Position numbers and translations under genes: made by a program
Virus record (IMG/VR): IMGVR_UViG_3300009503_000018
Span: 64,001-128,000 of that record
Reading direction: 5' to 3' (one strand)
Origin: a virus
DNA: 64,000 nt
Shown here: piece by piece, positions 17,242 to 30,204 of the stretch
Layout of the letters: every line of letters starts with the position of its first letter
Position numbering within the stretch: position 1 is the first letter of the stretch
Notes under the pieces: generated by a model
The model's database searches: none
What the model was told of the DNA's origin: nothing
Seen by the model: the letters and a program-made list of their open reading frames with translations, nothing else

Positions 17242-17450
17242 TATTCTGATTCTTCTCTTTCGTCTTCCTCTTCTTCTGTGACGACTTCAAAAAATGTTTC
17301 GGTCTTTTTTTCGAAAGTTGTGACAATGAAACCCTTTTTATCGTATTCCGGTCCAACAAATGCTAGTGCTTCGTCCTTGGAGTTAAACATTTTAACAAAA
17401 GTGGGGTCGTTTTGATTAGTAACAACTGTAAATAGACTCTTTCGTGCCAT
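17241..17450 (-). CDS. Hypothetical protein
   Basis: 69-aa ORF, GGAGG SD, acidic tail. Confidence 0.55.
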   Translation of the reverse strand: MARKSLFTVVTNQNDPTFVKMFNSKDEALAFVGPEYDKKGFIVTTFEKKTETFFEVVTEEEEDEREESE

Positions 17451-17462
17451 TTATTCCTCCGT

Positions 17463-19496
17463 TTAATGTTCTCCTGAAAGGTCATATTCTTCGATATGGG
17501 TAACATGATTTTGTTTCACGGCTCGAATTTCTTTATCGAATCTCCCGCTATCGCGAACACTTCGATGGTTCGTAATAACAAGAACGGTCCTACCATCGCC
17601 GGTAAGATGTTCGAGAAGTTTGCACATTTGTTCTTCGCCCCAAGTATCCAAATTCGCAAATGGCTCATCCAGTAGCAACAAATTTACATTCGCATCTGCT
17701 TGTTCCATTGACAGATCTCCGAAAGCTCCAGTAATGGCCAAACTCAATGCGGCTTTTTCACCTCCTGAATAAAACCGTATCGGGACGTGTTTTTTATTTC
17801 CGTCTTTGACCAAAATGTCAAGTTCGGTTTTTACTCCTTTGCCATCTGCTTTTGGAACTTCTGTAACCAATTCTGCGTGAACTTCTCCATCCGTCAGGAT
17901 AGACAAATATTTAGCTAGTGAATTATTAAACGCGTCGCGACTCGAATGAATTTTGAACGATTTAAAACCTTTATCTCCAATAAGTTCTTCGCATCGCTCA
18001 ATATACTTAATGCTTTTTTCATTTTTCTCATTAATAGTAATTTGGTGCTGTAATTGCTTGTTAAGTTTTTCATATTGAGACCGGGAATTTTCGGCGGTTT
18101 CAATCTGTGTTTTCAACTGTGTATACGCTTGTGTAAGATGGAGTTGCTCAGCCAAGAGATCTTTCTTTTCCTCCTCAATTTTTTCCGGAATATGAACACC
18201 GGTCCCGATACACTCTTTTAGAGTTTTGAGTTGTTCTACTACCTTTTGTAGGTCGTTGCTTGCTGTTTGTAGAAGGGCGTGATTTGCCGTCATGTCAGCT
18301 TCATACGCCCGCATATCTCGTAATACTCCCTGTGTACTTTTCTGTGTAGAAAGCATTTGTTGGAGCGCGTCTTTTAGAGCGTCTCTCTTTTTCGTCAACT
18401 CTTTAATGGTCCGTGTATATTTCGTATGCAAACTTTGGCGCAACTCATCAGAAACCGCTTGTTCACACTCCGCACATTCCCCTTTCAAAGATTCCACATG
18501 TTGTAGCCGCATCTCCGCCTGCCGTACTTCCGCGTTTGCCATTGCATGTTTATTTTGGAGATCGCAGACTTGTGCATTAATCGCCTCAACTTCTGCTTCA
18601 AGCTGTGCCGACGTTTTAAATGTCGAAAACCGAAAACTAAAATCTTCTGCCTTTTGGCTGCACGTTTTCGCTAATTGCTGAACGCGATCTTTTAATAGAC
18701 GCTCTTTAGTTTGTAGTTCTGCAATAAGTCGAAGTTTCTTTGCCTCTTCTTCCAACGAGGCAAGTTCGTCTGCAATAACACGCAGTCGTGCTTGTTGTTC
18801 TTGGAGTTCCCGCGACCATTGAGCAATTTCTTCGGGTGCGACCAGTGTTTTTGCCATCGCGGCAACTTGCGCTTGAAGTGTTGTTACAACCCCTTGCCCT
18901 TTCAGCAATTCTTGACGCAGGGATTTTCTCCACTCGCTCGCCACTTTGATATATTTGTCGCACTCGTCGAGATTCAAGATATTTCCAAAAATAGCTTTCC
19001 GCTCTTTGTCAGTACGTGTAATAAAATCAGCTATTTTCGATTGTGGAATATACGCTTGATTGACGAATTGGTCATATGTCATTCGAATATGATCCCGAAT
19101 GATTTTTTTGGTATCCGTATTTCGAGCGCCTTTTTCTGGTTGCCAGTTTTGGCCGTCCCACCGATACAACGTCCAATGCGTGCCTTCCTTCGGATGCTGC
19201 CGTGCATAAACAACATAATACGGCACACCAGCATCGTCAATAAACGAAACTGCTATGCGACATCCCTGGTCACGTCGAACCGTATTAATGACGGTATCGT
19301 GAGTTGAACCGTCGTCGTTTTCTTCAAATAAAGCAGTCGTAATGGCTTTAAAAATAGAACTTTTTCCCGCCCCAGACGAAATACCACGATCACGATTTTC
19401 GCCGGTGACGAGATATAACTTCCCGGGCTCAAAATCGAGGACTTGTTTGTCCCCATAAGACCGAAACCCCTCAATTTCGACCGAACGAATGATCAT
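17463..19496 (-). CDS. sbcC: SbcC/Rad50 (gp46-like) SMC-family ATPase
   Basis: IEGFRSY, GAGKSS Walker A, coiled coil with CAEC zinc hook, YSGGE signature, LLLDEPF Walker B. Confidence 0.93.
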   Translation of the reverse strand: MIIRSVEIEGFRSYGDKQVLDFEPGKLYLVTGENRDRGISSGAGKSSIFKAITTALFEENDDGSTHDTVINTVRRDQGCRIAVSFIDDAGVPYYVVYARQHPKEGTHWTLYRWDGQNWQPEKGARNTDTKKIIRDHIRMTYDQFVNQAYIPQSKIADFITRTDKERKAIFGNILNLDECDKYIKVASEWRKSLRQELLKGQGVVTTLQAQVAAMAKTLVAPEEIAQWSRELQEQQARLRVIADELASLEEEAKKLRLIAELQTKERLLKDRVQQLAKTCSQKAEDFSFRFSTFKTSAQLEAEVEAINAQVCDLQNKHAMANAEVRQAEMRLQHVESLKGECAECEQAVSDELRQSLHTKYTRTIKELTKKRDALKDALQQMLSTQKSTQGVLRDMRAYEADMTANHALLQTASNDLQKVVEQLKTLKECIGTGVHIPEKIEEEKKDLLAEQLHLTQAYTQLKTQIETAENSRSQYEKLNKQLQHQITINEKNEKSIKYIERCEELIGDKGFKSFKIHSSRDAFNNSLAKYLSILTDGEVHAELVTEVPKADGKGVKTELDILVKDGNKKHVPIRFYSGGEKAALSLAITGAFGDLSMEQADANVNLLLLDEPFANLDTWGEEQMCKLLEHLTGDGRTVLVITNHRSVRDSGRFDKEIRAVKQNHVTHIEEYDLSGEH

Positions 19497-19628
19497 TGCT
19501 TGGTGACGACATCCTCAGTCAATGACAAGGACTTCTCAGGTTAACCTGAAGGCTCCGTCCAAGCCGAAGGATATTTATCGCTGCATTCACATCTCTGTCA
19601 AGTAGTAAACTACACGAACACGAGTGTA
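19483..19628 (-). ncRNA. Putative cis omegaRNA (reRNA) of TnpB; guide begins CAAGCAATGATCATTCGTTC
   Basis: Overlaps the tnpB 3' end; hairpins TCAGG-TTAA-CCTGA and GTCCT..AGGAT; ends TCAC. The 5' limit is inferred from the extent of the second copy. Confidence 0.6.
19493..19504. repeat. 12-bp direct repeat, sbcC-side copy (TCATTGCTTGGT)
   Basis: Identical to 20693-20704; contains the sbcC ATG. Confidence 0.9.
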
Positions 19629-20692
19629 TTCGTTCTGACAATGTTTTTTGTCGAACCAATCCACATTGTGAACAGGTACTTGACGTGCCACGAGGTGGGA
19701 CCTTGACGAATCGGCGTCCAGCCTCTTCCGCTTTGACACCAAGAATGTCGAGGAATCGTGACCATGCAGCATCTGTTATAGATTTAGATTTATTGAGCCC
19801 GCTCGTTGACTTGTGTGTCATTTCACGCACATCTAAATCCTCAACGACGATCATTGCATTCTCAGAAACAATTCGATGGGCAAGTTTATGCTGAAAATCA
19901 TTTCGTTGATTTGTTATTTTCGCATATAACCTGGCGAGGTATGCTTTCGCCTTTTCTCGACGCTTCGAGCCTCGATTCTTTCGACTAAGCGCTCGCTGAG
20001 CTGCGCTCAGCCGCTCTTCAGTTTTTCGATACCATCGTGGATTCTCGATTTTTTCACCGGTAGACAACGTGGCAAAACTCTCTAAACCCATATCAATACC
20101 AATTTCTGCGGTTGCTTCAGGGTATGGTTTGGCAGGAACATCAGCGCAGGAAAATATCGCATACCATTTTCCTGCTCGACGCTTGAGGGTGAGCATCTTT
20201 GGTTTTCCAGTAATTGGTCGGTGAAACCGAATCCGAACACACCCAATACCACCAAGACGGATTTTCTTCGGGCTAATCAAACGAAAGCCAATATCCTGAG
20301 GCCATGTCAGGCTATTATAACGATCTCGTCCTTTGAACCTTGGATAACCAGGCTTTTCGCCATTTTTTACACGCCCGAAGAATTGTTGAAATGCAAAATC
20401 GACACGGTAAATTACCTGTTGAAGAACCTGCGCATAAATATTCGCGAATTCAGGTCGTTCTTGTTTGACAACGGGAAGTTCTTTTGATTGTTCAAAAAAG
20501 CCAATACGCACACCATGTTTCCAGGCTTCGCGCTCTTTGATCGCCGCATTGTACAATTCACGGCAATATCCAAGCCACAGGTCTAATTGTTGTGCTTGTA
20601 CCTTGGTTGGATATATGCGATATTTAAATGCTCTATGCATTAATAGACATATTAGGCTACGTACTTTATAGTAGCGGCGGAGGGACTCGAAC
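19503..20692 (-). mobile_element. tnpB-only IS200/IS605-family (IS1341-like) element
   Basis: Single tnpB ORF; right end with subterminal hairpin finishing ..GAGGATGTCGTCAC; no tnpA. Confidence 0.85.
19519..20640 (-). CDS. tnpB: RNA-guided endonuclease TnpB, catalytic motifs intact
   Basis: MHRAFKYRIYPT start; GYPRFK; RuvC-I IGIDMG, RuvC-II VVEDL, Zn finger CSQC..CSC, RuvC-III DRDVNAAINI. Start trimmed to the ATG at 20640 (373 aa). Confidence 0.95.
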   Translation of the reverse strand: MHRAFKYRIYPTKVQAQQLDLWLGYCRELYNAAIKEREAWKHGVRIGFFEQSKELPVVKQERPEFANIYAQVLQQVIYRVDFAFQQFFGRVKNGEKPGYPRFKGRDRYNSLTWPQDIGFRLISPKKIRLGGIGCVRIRFHRPITGKPKMLTLKRRAGKWYAIFSCADVPAKPYPEATAEIGIDMGLESFATLSTGEKIENPRWYRKTEERLSAAQRALSRKNRGSKRREKAKAYLARLYAKITNQRNDFQHKLAHRIVSENAMIVVEDLDVREMTHKSTSGLNKSKSITDAAWSRFLDILGVKAEEAGRRFVKVPPRGTSSTCSQCGLVRQKTLSERIHSCSCSLLLDRDVNAAINILRLGRSLQVNLRSPCH

Positions 20693-20704
20693 TCATTGCT
20701 TGGT
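20693..20704. repeat. 12-bp direct repeat, upstream-gene copy
   Basis: Identical to 19493-19504; contains the TGA stop of ORF 20693-20941. Confidence 0.9.
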
Positions 20705-20941
20705 ATGCATTTCAAAAGCGAATGCTACTGTATACCCTTCAACTCGTTGTTCGTCAAGTACTGAATTTAACAGTTCTTTCGTCGGACATACAACGACTCG
20801 TCTTTTCTCTATACCTTCTTTCTGAAGGACCGCGACATATGAAACAGCGTTATGCTGTATAGATTTATGCACCGATAAAAGAAGATCTGCAAACTCATCA
20901 ACGGAAACTGGTTTTTCTATTTCTATATGTTTTCTATTCAT
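20693..20941 (-). CDS. Hypothetical protein between sbcD and sbcC
   Basis: 82-aa ORF overlapping the sbcD stop. Confidence 0.6.
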   Translation of the reverse strand: MNRKHIEIEKPVSVDEFADLLLSVHKSIQHNAVSYVAVLQKEGIEKRRVVVCPTKELLNSVLDEQRVEGYTVAFAFEMHTKQ

Positions 20942-22014
20942 ATTGTATCAATCCGTCGTTCAATTTCTTTTAAATACTCCAGCAATTCCGGGTCATTATC
21001 GACTTGCTGCACGTAAGAAAGTAATTGCTTTCCAATTGGAATTCTTTTGTTGATTTTTGCATTGACATTTAAGGGAGTTGTCGCTTTCGCCTGCATACGG
21101 ACCTTTGCCGAAGCCGCCCCCATCGCCCGCAGGCGTTTCTCTAGTTCTCGTCGAACAGACACAGGAGCTTGACCATTATGTTCTACAACCATAAATACAA
21201 CATTGCCCACAACGTTTTTCTCAATTTGGAGCATTTCTTCTATATCACCAGCCCAAGTTTTCACAACATTAATGATTTTAGGAAAAGGCGATTCAACAAA
21301 TTCAACTGCAATCGACGATTCAACGTCGACAATAAGAGCCCCTTTCGCACCTTGATCGCCGTCTTGGACGCGCTCTAATGGCGTTCCAATATGCCAGGCA
21401 GGGACATTTTCAAATTTGAGTTCTTGACGTAAGTGAATATGCCCTCCCAGCACGTAGGATAATTCAGAACGGTCAATGGTTTCTCGGACAATTCCTGTTG
21501 TGGCGGCATATTTTCCATCTCGTGAATGTCCGATGACGGAATCATGGAAAAACAGAACATTAATATCGTGCGGACTTAAGTCATACTCGAACTGTGTGTA
21601 ACCATAGGGCAAAAAGTGCAATAACAGCCCATTAAAGTCTAGGACACCGGGCTTGTCAAACACAACAATTTTATCGTCGTCATTCCATATTTGTACGCCG
21701 TTATAACTGTGCCATTGTCCTGTCTTGTCATACAAATCGTGGTTGCCAAGAAGACACGCAATACGAACATTGTCGCGGCGAAATCGGTTGAGCCGCTCGT
21801 CCGCTAAGTCCCGCATCCATGCTGGTGGTCTGTGAGGTTTAAAGCGGTCTCCACCAAAAATTACTGCGTCGGCCTTTTTTTGTAAAGCAAGTTCTCGAAC
21901 CCAGTCCCACACATTCAGCGTATCAAGCAACCGGCTGTTAAAACCGGTTTTCTGGTCAATATGACCTTCGCTATATTCGCCGATGTGACCATCGCTAAAC
22001 ACGACGAGTTTCAT
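20938..22014 (-). CDS. sbcD: SbcD/Mre11 (gp47-like) metallophosphoesterase nuclease
   Basis: SDGH, GGDRF, LGNHD, FHD, GHIH motifs. Confidence 0.92.
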   Translation of the reverse strand: MKLVVFSDGHIGEYSEGHIDQKTGFNSRLLDTLNVWDWVRELALQKKADAVIFGGDRFKPHRPPAWMRDLADERLNRFRRDNVRIACLLGNHDLYDKTGQWHSYNGVQIWNDDDKIVVFDKPGVLDFNGLLLHFLPYGYTQFEYDLSPHDINVLFFHDSVIGHSRDGKYAATTGIVRETIDRSELSYVLGGHIHLRQELKFENVPAWHIGTPLERVQDGDQGAKGALIVDVESSIAVEFVESPFPKIINVVKTWAGDIEEMLQIEKNVVGNVVFMVVEHNGQAPVSVRRELEKRLRAMGAASAKVRMQAKATTPLNVNAKINKRIPIGKQLLSYVQQVDNDPELLEYLKEIERRIDTI

Positions 22015-23036
22015 AAGGTTTCTCGAATATGAGGCAACCCTTCATTATATGCCGCTGGTGTAATTTCAATAAATTCTGCTTTTTGTTGTAATTCTTGAAT
22101 GTTTTTTGCTCCACAATACGTCAAACCAGACCGCAAACCGCCAATCAGATCTCGTACAACATTCTCTACTGGACCTTTACACGGGACTTTGATAGAAATC
22201 CCCTCCGCTGTTTTCCACTCTGGTACATCACCATAGTAGTCACGATGCGCCTCAACAGAGGCCATGCCACGAAATATTTTATAGTTATTCGGGCCGTCCC
22301 AAATCTCTTCGCCGGGAGTTTCGTCTGTACCAGCCAACAAACCGCCAACCATAACCATAGTCGCTCCGGCAGCGAGCGCTTTTACTACATCTCCCGGGAA
22401 ACGAATTCCTCCGTCCGCTATTACTGGACGACCGGTCCTACTGCAATCCATAATCGCTGTAATTTGTGGAACACCAAACCCGGTTTTTAGGCGTGTTGTA
22501 CATACTGACCCTGGACCGATACCAACCTTGATTGCATCGGCACCACAACTAGCCAAATAATCAGCGCCGGCGGCCGTGGCGACATTTCCAGCGATAATAT
22601 AAATATTCTTTTTAAACTTTTCCCGTAACGCTTTAATCATTTTGCCGGTCAATCGTGAATGACCGTGGGCTACATCAACGCAAAATAGCGTTGCACCAGC
22701 ATTATACAATGCTTCAGCGCGATCCAATCCTTCATTAACACCTACCGAGACTCCTACGATGGGATATTTATTGTCTTGTGATTGTGTTGCCTTTTTATAT
22801 TCATTGACATTTTCTTCAATTGAAATAAAACGATGCAATATCCCTAGACACCCCAATTCCCACATCTTTCTTGCCATTACTGCTCCACAAATTGTATCCA
22901 TATTTGCTGCAATAATAGGCACTTTAAATAAATACGGACCTAATGACGCTTCGGTAGAGACCGCCGACCGAGAAGAGAAATGATTATAATTGGGCTGTAA
23001 CAACAGATCATCAAAAGTTAATCCACGACGGATCAT
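22011..23036 (-). CDS. IMP dehydrogenase / GMP reductase family protein without CBS domains
   Basis: [35 protein letters not shown] (catalytic Cys), [15 protein letters not shown]. Start trimmed to MIRRGLTF. Confidence 0.9.
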
Positions 23037-23380
23037 TTCTCTCTCTCCCAAGGATAAACAACATATTGATCTATTTCTCGCACCCAATATGTCGGCACAA
23101 ACGGACAATGTTTGTGCTTGTGGAGTGTAGCGATATCGTATTTATCTATAAAAGGAGATAGAGTTTTTCCACTATCTGCAATATCGTCCACGACGAGACT
23201 GTGTTCTTCGGGCTCATCAAACTTGAGAGGGAGGTCAAGCAAATGCGATAACGTAACACCAAGGGGCAGACCGCCCCGTGGGAGACTGAAAATGGATGAA
23301 TACTTTTTTCCTTTTTTACGGATTTGCGCTACGAGTTGAGACACGTCCGTGTCGAAATCTGCCCACGAATACACAATCAT
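23033..23380 (-). CDS. Purine phosphoribosyltransferase (Gpt-like)
   Basis: SLPRGGL and the PRPP-binding LVVDDIADSGKTL; ends VVYPWE. Confidence 0.85.
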   Translation of the reverse strand: MIVYSWADFDTDVSQLVAQIRKKGKKYSSIFSLPRGGLPLGVTLSHLLDLPLKFDEPEEHSLVVDDIADSGKTLSPFIDKYDIATLHKHKHCPFVPTYWVREIDQYVVYPWEREK

Positions 23381-26840: not shown

Positions 26841-26899
26841 GTGACGGCACCCCAACAGGGCTTCTCGGGATAACCCCGACGGCTCCGTCCGAGCCTAAG
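26841..26899 (-). ncRNA. Diverged orphan omegaRNA/right-end 3' fragment (copy 3)
   Basis: Aligns with the tnpB 3' end (CTTAGGCTCGGACGGAGCC..GAGAAG..GTCAC); both hairpins are retained through compensatory changes. Confidence 0.6.
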
Positions 26900-26908
26900 C
26901 TTAATACC

Positions 26909-27051
26909 GTGACGACATCCTCAGTCAATGACAAGGACTTCTCAGGTTAACCTGAAGGCTCCGTCCAAGCCTGAGTATATTTATCGCTGCATTCACATCT
27001 CTGTCAAGTAGTAGACCACACAAACACGAGTGTAATCCACCGCCGCTTTTG
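26909..27051 (-). mobile_element. Non-autonomous (MITE-like) IS200/IS605 derivative carrying an orphan omegaRNA scaffold (copy 2)
   Basis: 26909-27034 is 120/126 nt identical to 19503-19628; preceded by TTGAT|CAAAAGCGGCGGTGGAT; no tnpB ORF. Confidence 0.75.
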
Positions 27052-28936: not shown

Positions 28937-30204
28937 TACTTCTCCACAACCGCAGTAGCCAACCGAGACATCAACTCCGTAAATTCTACTTTAGCATGCT
29001 TTCGGAAAAAGTCAACTAGGCGAATTTCCGAAGCCAAATTCATATCTTGCAACGTCTTGACCTTAAGTTCGATCTGACCGAGTGTGCCCAAGAACTTAAA
29101 GATGTTCTGTGCTTGATGCGGATGCACAATCTTCGCAGCATGCACTTTTACCCAATGCGCGACTGCGCACGAATACGCATACTTCTGGCTTACATCCTCG
29201 GTGTCGTATTGAGGCATCTTCCCTTCATTAACGATTTCCTCCGGACACACCTTTTGGAACTGCGCAAGAAATGCCATAAACTCCGTAGTTGCTCCAGGTC
29301 CAATCAAGGGGAGAGCCAGCCGCCGGAAGTCCACATCGGACTGTGCATTAGTTTGGTCGAGAACTCGGGAATAAAATTCCCAACTTCGCGGATTCGGCTG
29401 CGCCTGTTCATCCTTCTTGAACTTTGTTGGCATGAGCGTATCGGGATACGTAGAAATCGCGCCAATAATCTCGGGACGAATCGCGTTCTCTCGCGCCCAA
29501 GCCAAAAAATCTTCGGCGTCAGTAACAATTTCAATATGCGCAACCCGATTGTTTAGGGCGGATGAAATCCGATGGACGAATGTCCCATCACCCGCCTGAT
29601 TTCCGGCGAGAACAATCATGCACCGCTTCGATAGTGCGTGAGAATGCACACGCCGGTCATACACAAGCTGCAATGCCGCGTTCTGCACCGCTTCGCATGC
29701 ATTGCTAAATTCGTCGAGGAACAAGATGGAATACACGTCATCATCCGTATTCAAATACTCCGGCTTAAACCACTGAGTAGTCTTAGACTTAGGATCAGCA
29801 AAGGGCAACCCTTTGACCTCAACTGGATCAAACAAGGCAAGGCGCACATCGTCTACACGGATATGCGCGGGAGCTGGTCCGCGCGTCACAACCGGCTTTC
29901 CATTCTCATGTGTCACTCTCGTAACGCCACGCACACACAAGGCACATCCGGTCGGAAGATGATGCTTGGGGCATCCCCGCACATGTTCTGTAGGATTAGA
30001 CGACTGGGTCTTACATCCCCCGCACTTATCGCCTGTAGCGAACTCTTCAGCTTTCTCGATCGCCATTTGATACACAATAGCGGACTTACCCACACCGGGC
30101 GGTCCATGCATAAATGGGGGGCAGGGCTGCGGAATGTTCAGAAACAACCGCAACAGAGCCTTTGCTTCGGAAATGCTGACCTTATCCACATCTCGGACAC
30201 TCAT
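28936..30204 (-). CDS. MoxR-like AAA+ ATPase with a Cys/His insertion
   Basis: GPPGVGKS Walker A, ILFLDEF Walker B, AGN, SSALNNR, PNPRSWE. Confidence 0.9.
   Translation of the reverse strand: MSVRDVDKVSISEAKALLRLFLNIPQPCPPFMHGPPGVGKSAIVYQMAIEKAEEFATGDKCGGCKTQSSNPTEHVRGCPKHHLPTGCALCVRGVTRVTHENGKPVVTRGPAPAHIRVDDVRLALFDPVEVKGLPFADPKSKTTQWFKPEYLNTDDDVYSILFLDEFSNACEAVQNAALQLVYDRRVHSHALSKRCMIVLAGNQAGDGTFVHRISSALNNRVAHIEIVTDAEDFLAWARENAIRPEIIGAISTYPDTLMPTKFKKDEQAQPNPRSWEFYSRVLDQTNAQSDVDFRRLALPLIGPGATTEFMAFLAQFQKVCPEEIVNEGKMPQYDTEDVSQKYAYSCAVAHWVKVHAAKIVHPHQAQNIFKFLGTLGQIELKVKTLQDMNLASEIRLVDFFRKHAKVEFTELMSRLATAVVEK

Follow-up and report, generated by a model that had tools for sequence, protein, structure and literature searches.

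A tnpB unit without transposase or left end at the sbcC junction of a hot-spring phage: target duplication, carried donor flank, exact right ends, and variable left ends

Introduction

TnpB, the ancestor of Cas12, is very common in phages, and the wider question addressed here is what TnpB-only elements do in phages and how they move without a transposase. Insertion of IS200/IS605 elements makes no target duplication, as stated in the searched text of PMC13565253. That text also attributes to a preprint (bioRxiv 10.1101/2025.02.20.638934) a TnpA-independent, TnpB-driven spread of IS605 elements among plasmids, termed “non-restorative homing,” and treats such homing in phages as theoretical. 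We analyzed a tnpB unit located between a small open reading frame (ORF82) and the recombination gene sbcC in a 64-kb stretch of viral DNA (the window), which represents bases 64001 to 128000 of the 139.5-kb IMG/VR virus record IMGVR_UViG_3300009503_000018; coordinates prefixed G000:C1 refer to the whole record. The metagenomes whose sequencing runs contain window sequence are from hot-spring, microbial-mat, and related environments.

One phage lineage supplies both alleles of the junction (filled and empty), the donor site, further insertions of the unit, and remnants in decay. The sites are called A (behind the tRNA-Leu gene), B (the sbcC junction), C (a third site), and D, E, and F (fragments). 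With moderate confidence, we favor the reading that the unit is a non-autonomous remnant of the IS605 family, comprising tnpB and an omegaRNA/right end, that was copied in while anchored at its right end and is predicted to home.

Results

A direct repeat brackets an intact tnpB unit

On the minus strand, the window has exactly two occurrences of the 12-mer ACCAAGCAATGA, at 19493 to 19504 and at 20693 to 20704, and these bracket a 1,200-bp insert. The chance expectation is 0.01 occurrences per window, and none of 100 shuffles gave two matches, which bears out the 12-bp direct repeat around the tnpB cassette reported in a preliminary description of this DNA. The repeat is real; strictly, however, only 10 nt (CAAGCAATGA) of the target is duplicated, as the AC that opens the right copy is part of the element (the end of GTCAC) and the AC of the left copy is target sequence (CATAC). 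The stop codon of ORF82 marks the exact end of the left copy. The features of the junction are as follows.

20693 to 20941, minus strand: ORF82, 82 amino acids (aa), with its last codons and stop inside the left repeat copy
20693 to 20704, minus strand: left repeat copy, ACCAAGCAATGA, consisting of the AC of the candidate target-adjacent motif (TAM), TAC, and the first 10 nt of the guide target
20669 to 20692, minus strand: 24-nt tRNA-Leu(CAA) stub, from the T-loop to the acceptor end, plus trailer
20641 to 20668, minus strand: 28-nt leader between the tRNA stub and the tnpB ATG
20640 (ATG) to 19519 (stop), minus strand: tnpB, intact, 373 aa
19503 to 19664, minus strand: omegaRNA scaffold/right end, overlapping the 3' end of tnpB, with the terminus GTCAC at 19503 to 19507
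19493 to 19504, minus strand: right repeat copy, containing the sbcC start codon
19502 to 19483, minus strand: predicted 20-nt guide, CAAGCAATGATCATTCGTTC, spanning the last part of the right repeat copy and codons 1 to 5 of sbcC
17463 to 19496, minus strand: sbcC, a SbcC/Rad50-like ATPase gene, 677 aa

Three Pfam domains of TnpB scored above the cutoff (HTH_OrfB_IS605, PF12323; OrfB_IS605, PF01385; and Cas12f1-like_TNB, PF07282). Residues 2 to 359 align to the solved ISDra2 TnpB (E value = 4e-45, ~30% identity), and the putative RuvC motifs IGIDMG, VVEDL, and DRDVNAA match those of this homologue. We take tnpB to be a full-length, intact gene for a predicted nuclease of the OMEGA family, with the catalytic D-E-D motifs read from the alignment.

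The GTCAC terminus is common to the copies in contigs L008, L009, and L012 and to relatives with 40 to 70% protein identity (L015, L020, L036, L042, L049, and L054), and in each of these the similarity ceases after GTCAC. Because this terminus is conserved in all copies and relatives, we place the right end of the insert at 19503 and take CAAGCAATGATCATTCGTTC as the predicted guide, so that the earlier assignment of the guide to the DNA following the right end, at the sbcC start, holds. The consensus fold of the scaffold has three conserved 3' hairpins, with compensatory change in 5 pairs; the z-score of single-sequence folding was only -1.55, and no Rfam family matched the scaffold.

Filled and empty alleles coexist at the sbcC junction

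Contigs of three runs from three studies, mapped on 17400 to 22100, join 19492 directly to 20693 and omit exactly 1,200 bp; at this joint the repeat sequence fits both sides. The preliminary description had predicted an empty junction with a stop/start overlap in related phages, and a search through ORF82 variants indeed yielded eight such contigs (L026 to L033) from eight samples, all representing other strains. Their junction reads ..GCAT/CAC-C/TAAGCAATGA followed by TCATT.., with a single repeat copy, and the stop codon of ORF82 and the start codon of sbcC overlap in ATGA. The filled allele was also recovered in five further assemblies (L005 to L007 and L022 to L025). The insert is therefore a presence/absence polymorphism at one exact site between homologous genomes. 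A contig with site B empty (L027) and one with site C filled (L009) both come from JGI 3300035183, and an empty site B (L030) and filled alleles (L005 and L006) come from one ENA series.

We rejected L025, a JGI contig, as a second filled background. Its first 421 nt (L025:1-421) are unrelated and bacterial looking, resembling an L,D-transpeptidase gene, and their joint to the filled allele is probably an assembly chimera.

The local density of single-nucleotide polymorphisms left of site B is high. In the 3' half of ORF82 (window positions 20758 to 20785), 8 substitutions in 28 nt separate two empty haplotypes from the filled allele, and the haplotypes are mosaics of one another within the 130 nt left of the insertion site; this mosaicism indicates frequent recombination on that side.

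The left side carries donor flank and lacks transposon parts

The 24 nt that follow the left repeat (20669 to 20692) reproduce, base for base, the 3' end and trailer of the tRNA-Leu(CAA) gene that the phage itself carries (G000:C1:55118-55141). In L008, which represents another strain with flanks 96% identical, an intact tRNA-Leu gene is directly followed by the same 28-nt leader and tnpB. Since the stub equals the tRNA-Leu end and the L008 unit follows an intact tRNA gene, we conclude that the site B cassette derives from a site A copy, with 24 nt of the left flank of site A carried along. It is less parsimonious to regard the stub as the element's own left end, given its phage-specific trailer and the sister copy behind the intact tRNA gene.

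No left-end hairpin was found in the 28 nt between the stub and the ATG, whereas the relatives in L015 and L020 do have one. The leader may, tentatively, be the last remnant of a tnpA 3' end, as it is weakly similar to the tnpA remnant of L015. No Y1 TnpA (PF01797) was detected in the 139.5-kb record, which is ~77% complete and encodes only one TnpB. The unit thus fails three defining features of IS200/IS605 elements, namely TnpA, a hairpin left end, and duplication-free insertion; the duplicated target measures 10 (12) bp at site B and, at site C, about 17 bp. Because the left end is missing, a duplication is present, and donor flank is carried, we regard canonical TnpA transposition as excluded for the site B insert. 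The arrival by another route that the preliminary description had proposed finds good support in these three traits and in the absence of TnpA from the record.

Sister copies share the right end and differ on the left

Every site shows an exact right end, whereas the position of the left boundary differs from site to site (+24 nt of flank, -28, -1, or within tnpB). The site A copy has a 2-nt deletion (L008:4590-4610) that shifts the frame before the zinc ribbon and RuvC-III and leaves a 345-aa product; DnaJ-gene variants examined for the site A right junction gave empty sites only. At site C, which is empty in the record (G000:C1 ~29448-29466), a contig from another sample (L009) carries a unit 98% identical that starts 1 nt before the ATG and has an exact right end. 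About 17 nt of target (AGAGTTGTATAAAGTGA) lies on both sides of this unit, the left copy having two mismatches and reading TGC versus the TAC of the empty site. At sites B and C, where both junctions and the empty site are available, the duplication starts at the first base after the right end. Private in-frame indels in the site B copy show that it did not derive very recently from the A or C copies that were sampled.

Sites E and F rest on contig ends only. At site E, loose contig ends of one run give the right end, then CAAGCAA, and then unrelated sequence; at site F, they give a 5'-truncated fragment joined to G000 34146. Site D lies within the window and comprises two features.

26909 to 27037, minus strand: site D remnant of a sister tnpB, 129 nt, consisting of the 3' end and right end, 95% identical
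26841 to 26908, minus strand: right-end stub of greater age and divergence, immediately following the site D remnant and ending in GTCAC

What could pass for an orphan omegaRNA pair (26841 to 27037) consists of a tnpB copy in decay and the older right-end stub on which it sits. The remnant measures 242 nt in L012 (L012:1136-1445) versus 129 nt here, the shorter form having lost sequence in two additional internal deletions, at the short repeats AAAGCGG and GTGGATT; the site D copy is thus decaying by deletion.

After the GTCAC of site D, strains differ by small indels (strain variants of window 26901 to 26908). The variants read GCTTAGG..; GGTATTAA plus GCTTAGG..; and GCTTA plus ATACCGTG plus GGCTCGG, and GCTTAATACC in these variants is the reverse complement of GGTATTAAGC. 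These indels look like templated insertions from error-prone break repair at the border between right end and guide.

Two other IS605-type elements of this phage lineage are inserted without duplication, in contrast to the tnpB unit. A complete IS605 with a Y1 TnpA and a TnpB of a different subfamily (L008:1-1138) lies after TTTAC near G000:C1:57649 and is absent from the record. A hairpin-ended miniature IS605 derivative of ~195 nt (G000:C1:29511-29707) also lies after TTTAC, in the loop of a terminator-like hairpin; its site is uninterrupted in L009, and in its left end it is similar to the complete IS605 of L008. The closest nonidentical TnpB (70% aa identity; L015 to L019) is encoded in a phage between a capsid gene and a DUF7210 gene and is directly preceded by a 39-aa TnpA remnant, representing another 5'-eroded unit in a virus.

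The predicted guide and the empty site

The predicted guide equals the empty-site sequence, and the empty alleles seen either match it at 19 of 20 positions or carry a changed candidate TAM. In the empty alleles, TAC stands immediately 5' of the guide match at both site B (CATAC, then CAAGC) and site C (AGTAC, then AGAGT); one empty site B haplotype has CAC instead. Among relatives, TTAC occurs upstream of the left-end hairpins of L015 and L020 at different distances, and the two-copy pair L042/L060 has no common motif that could serve as a TAM. The left repeat copy of the filled allele retains only a 10-nt guide match, the same 10 guide bases that had been noted at the left junction from the start; that this would let the filled allele escape cutting is a prediction.

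The locus has the prerequisites of homing: the nuclease gene is intact and its scaffold conserved, the predicted guide corresponds to the empty site, a TAM candidate is present, the self-site is reduced to a match of 10 nt, and filled and empty alleles occur in the same sampling series. The role of an RNA-guided homing endonuclease that the preliminary description proposed for the cassette has only circumstantial evidence behind it, and we consider homing plausible but unproven.

Genomic neighborhood and database relatives

Two further genes lie upstream of the junction, and no Pfam family matched ORF82.

20938 to 22014, minus strand: SbcD/Mre11-like phosphoesterase gene, 358 aa, upstream of ORF82
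22011 to 23108, minus strand: IMPDH-like gene

Outside the window, the phage block at G000:C1:55100-57650 (L003) encodes HSP20, a DnaJ-like chaperone, a T4-type RNA ligase, and tRNA-Leu(CAA), a chaperone set that is unusual for a phage of a hot environment.

A megablast search against isolate phage genomes returned no match, and protein-level phage matches reached at most 48% for TnpB (Thermus phages) and ~25% for SbcC; for these reasons, no cultured relative of this phage appears to exist. GTDB genomes held no TnpB closer than 48%. IMG/VR was scanned with the protein sequence of SbcC, with two motifs of the right end, and with the sequences of the empty junction and of the right junction at site A, and none of these scans gave anything useful, and a scan of JGI metagenomes for the right end gave only a site D variant.

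Discussion

How the unit may move

In the explanation that we favor, the unit would move within a recombining hot-spring phage population by copy-in anchored at the right end. The right end would join precisely to a target position after TAC, the candidate TAM, and the flanking DNA would therefore become the guide. The left side would be closed at a variable point by nonhomologous joining, and this joint may carry donor flank, here 24 nt from the tRNA-Leu gene, at which an older copy is located. The same joint would also leave the TAM-proximal target duplicated, by 10 nt (12 with AC) at site B and about 17 nt at site C. Both ORF82 and sbcC survive because the left copy runs exactly to the stop codon of ORF82 and the start codon of sbcC is provided by the right copy. 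TnpB and its omegaRNA are predicted to cut insert-free alleles (TAC plus guide match) in coinfecting phages, after which the cassette would be copied into the cut allele by recombination; the left repeat copy, with 10 guide bases matched, should escape cutting.

We considered three routes to such a product. In route (a), TnpB would cut the empty allele and the TAM-distal end would copy the unit from a filled allele; synthesis would then end early or switch to another copy of the unit, and the TAM-proximal end, keeping the first 10 to 17 target bases, would be joined without homology. Route (b) would be a one-ended strand transfer of the right end by a transposase acting in trans, and route (c) would be template switching during replication. 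We favor route (a), or a mix of (a) and (b), over (c), because only these predict both an invariant right end and a fixed triplet before the guide match. Selection probably accounts for the end of the left repeat exactly at the stop codon of ORF82, because this is the shortest duplication that keeps ORF82 whole and a much longer one would recreate a cleavable target.

Several observations weigh against this explanation. The first concerns the right junction: simple homing does not account for an sbcC-site right junction on a unit from the tRNA site, which needs either an earlier canonical insertion followed by template switching or a one-ended strand transfer. The candidate TAM rests on two sites, the left junction at site A reads CTACTA before the unit and is not a neat fit to TAC, and more distant relatives show no consistent TAM. 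All eight empty alleles (three haplotypes) differ from the guide or the candidate TAM, at guide position 16, at position 17 plus TAC to CAC, or at position 1, and a fully matching guide target is absent among them. Over up to 13 kb, the filled alleles in L005 to L007 and L022 to L024 show no difference from the record (100% identity); the filled allele was seen in one clonal background only, and no spread into different backgrounds was found. For the two intact copies, B and C, the ratio of nonsynonymous to synonymous polymorphism (pN/pS) comes to 0.47, a value based on only 18 changes. No obvious Shine-Dalgarno or other ribosome-binding site precedes tnpB in the 28-nt leader. Finally, the site A copy is frameshifted, the deletion recurring in one run (place 19697), and its right junction rests on a single terminal contig base of L008.

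Two further ideas were set aside. The microhomology ACCAA shared by the flanks of sites A and B was rejected as the origin of the right junction, since the product would read GTCACACCAAG, which it does not. The guide mismatches are not claimed as drive resistance. The two sbcC changes in empty alleles, R4C and R4H, are both transitions at a single CpG, and a deamination hot spot there explains them equally well.

Alternative explanations

The alternative that survives best, which we still judge rather improbable, is a passive remnant: a decaying IS fragment that moved once, by rare illegitimate recombination or replication template switching, from the tRNA-Leu locus to the sbcC junction. The repeat would then be a by-product of a polymerase returning 12 nt behind its exit point, and TnpB would have had no part in the spread and would be intact only because the event was recent. 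Donor flank carried along and a filled allele confined to one clonal background fit this account, as do the selection on tnpB, which looks weak, and the frameshift at site A. Ongoing decay, with microhomology deletions, is likewise visible in the D and F remnants. Even the left junction exactly at a stop codon could be explained by selection among random joints. Random template switching, however, does not predict the same GTCAC end at all 5 to 6 sites, the TAC triplet at both resolved sites, or a second site at which the duplication starts at the right-end boundary, and the polymorphism across samples of unit copies at different sites indicates repeated movement.

Less probable again, and in our view doubtful, is mobilization in trans by a Y1 TnpA that the phage population or its host would supply, in a one-ended or a canonical reaction, with erosion afterward. 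The right end would be cleaved and joined 3' of a TTAC-like target, the missing left end would force an illegitimate second joint, and TnpB would be only a passenger aiding retention. The target TAC resembles TTAC, the exact right-end junction is as in TnpA chemistry, and a possible tnpA 3' remnant precedes tnpB. A full IS605 with Y1 TnpA in L008 and a miniature derivative in the record, both after TTTAC, also speak for this account; but that TnpA-bearing IS is of another subfamily, its ends (GATACACGAGCGGG.. and ..GTATGTCAG) and hairpins differ from those of the unit, and the record itself has no TnpA. A canonical TnpA insertion, moreover, yields no duplication and requires a left-end hairpin, and we know of no documented one-ended TnpA events of this kind.

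A canonical IS200/IS605 insertion whose 10- to 12-bp repeat is coincidental left-end sequence has only the TnpB family assignment in its favor and a negligible probability, being refuted by the sister copies in L008 and L009, which start without CAAGCAATGA (the preliminary description had named copies starting with the repeat regardless of flank as the observation that would support coincidence), and by the empty alleles, which hold one repeat copy, with the lack of a left-end hairpin and of TnpA and the expectation of 0.01 for the 12-mer per window pointing the same way.

Meaning and comparison with known systems

The protein itself belongs to the TnpB family. A limited literature search, no proof of absence, turned up nothing on TnpB units that duplicate their target, carry flank along, or vary in their left boundary. 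Under the copy-in explanation, the junction scars give a specific, testable prediction on the repair route. If homing is true, the unit would be an RNA-guided counterpart of the Seg and Mob endonucleases of T4-like phages. A broader generalization, which we put forward as speculative and rather unlikely, is that tnpB/omegaRNA units without transposase and left end colonize new sites by themselves, through an RNA-guided or right-end-anchored cut-and-copy process that places the right end beside a TAM. End joining on the left would then duplicate the TAM-proximal protospacer and at times bring donor flank with it. Were such transposase-free colonization true, it would mean TnpA-independent mobility for the most abundant transposon-associated gene family, active in phages.

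ISDra2 TnpB (PDB 8BF8/8EXA/8H1J) resembles the phage protein in domain order, full-length alignment, and RuvC motifs, and in both systems the guide scaffold overlaps the 3' end of the gene and the right end, and the guide is flanking DNA. Unlike ISDra2, the phage unit, at ~30% identity, has no TnpA partner and no left end and shows duplication and donor flank, and its candidate TAM is TAC versus TTGAT. IS1341-type and PATE-like elements likewise have no transposase gene inside and depend on something else for movement; however, IS1341-type elements retain both ends, and their movement is attributed to TnpA acting in trans, without duplication, whereas the phage unit lacks a left end and shows duplications and variable 5' boundaries.

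The plasmid “non-restorative homing” is the nearest functional precedent. As far as it is described in the searched text, TnpB cuts the empty orthologous site and the filled copy repairs it in co-resident genomes, much as proposed here. That case is experimental and concerns a complete IS605; ours concerns a natural phage population and a truncated element and is read from sequence. The searched text on plasmid homing makes no mention of duplication or carried-flank scars.

The exact 3' end, variable 5' end, and variable-length duplication also recall LINE-like target-primed insertion and abortive gap repair, such as incomplete synthesis-dependent strand annealing. This is an analogy of pattern only that implies no reverse transcriptase, and DNA-templated repair would be a simpler reading than reverse transcription.

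The Seg and Mob endonucleases of T4-like phages similarly lie between conserved genes that they leave undisrupted, are present or absent among related phages, and stand beside DNA repair genes. In contrast to their protein-based recognition, recognition by the phage tnpB unit would be RNA guided, and its boundaries are exact and carry a duplication.

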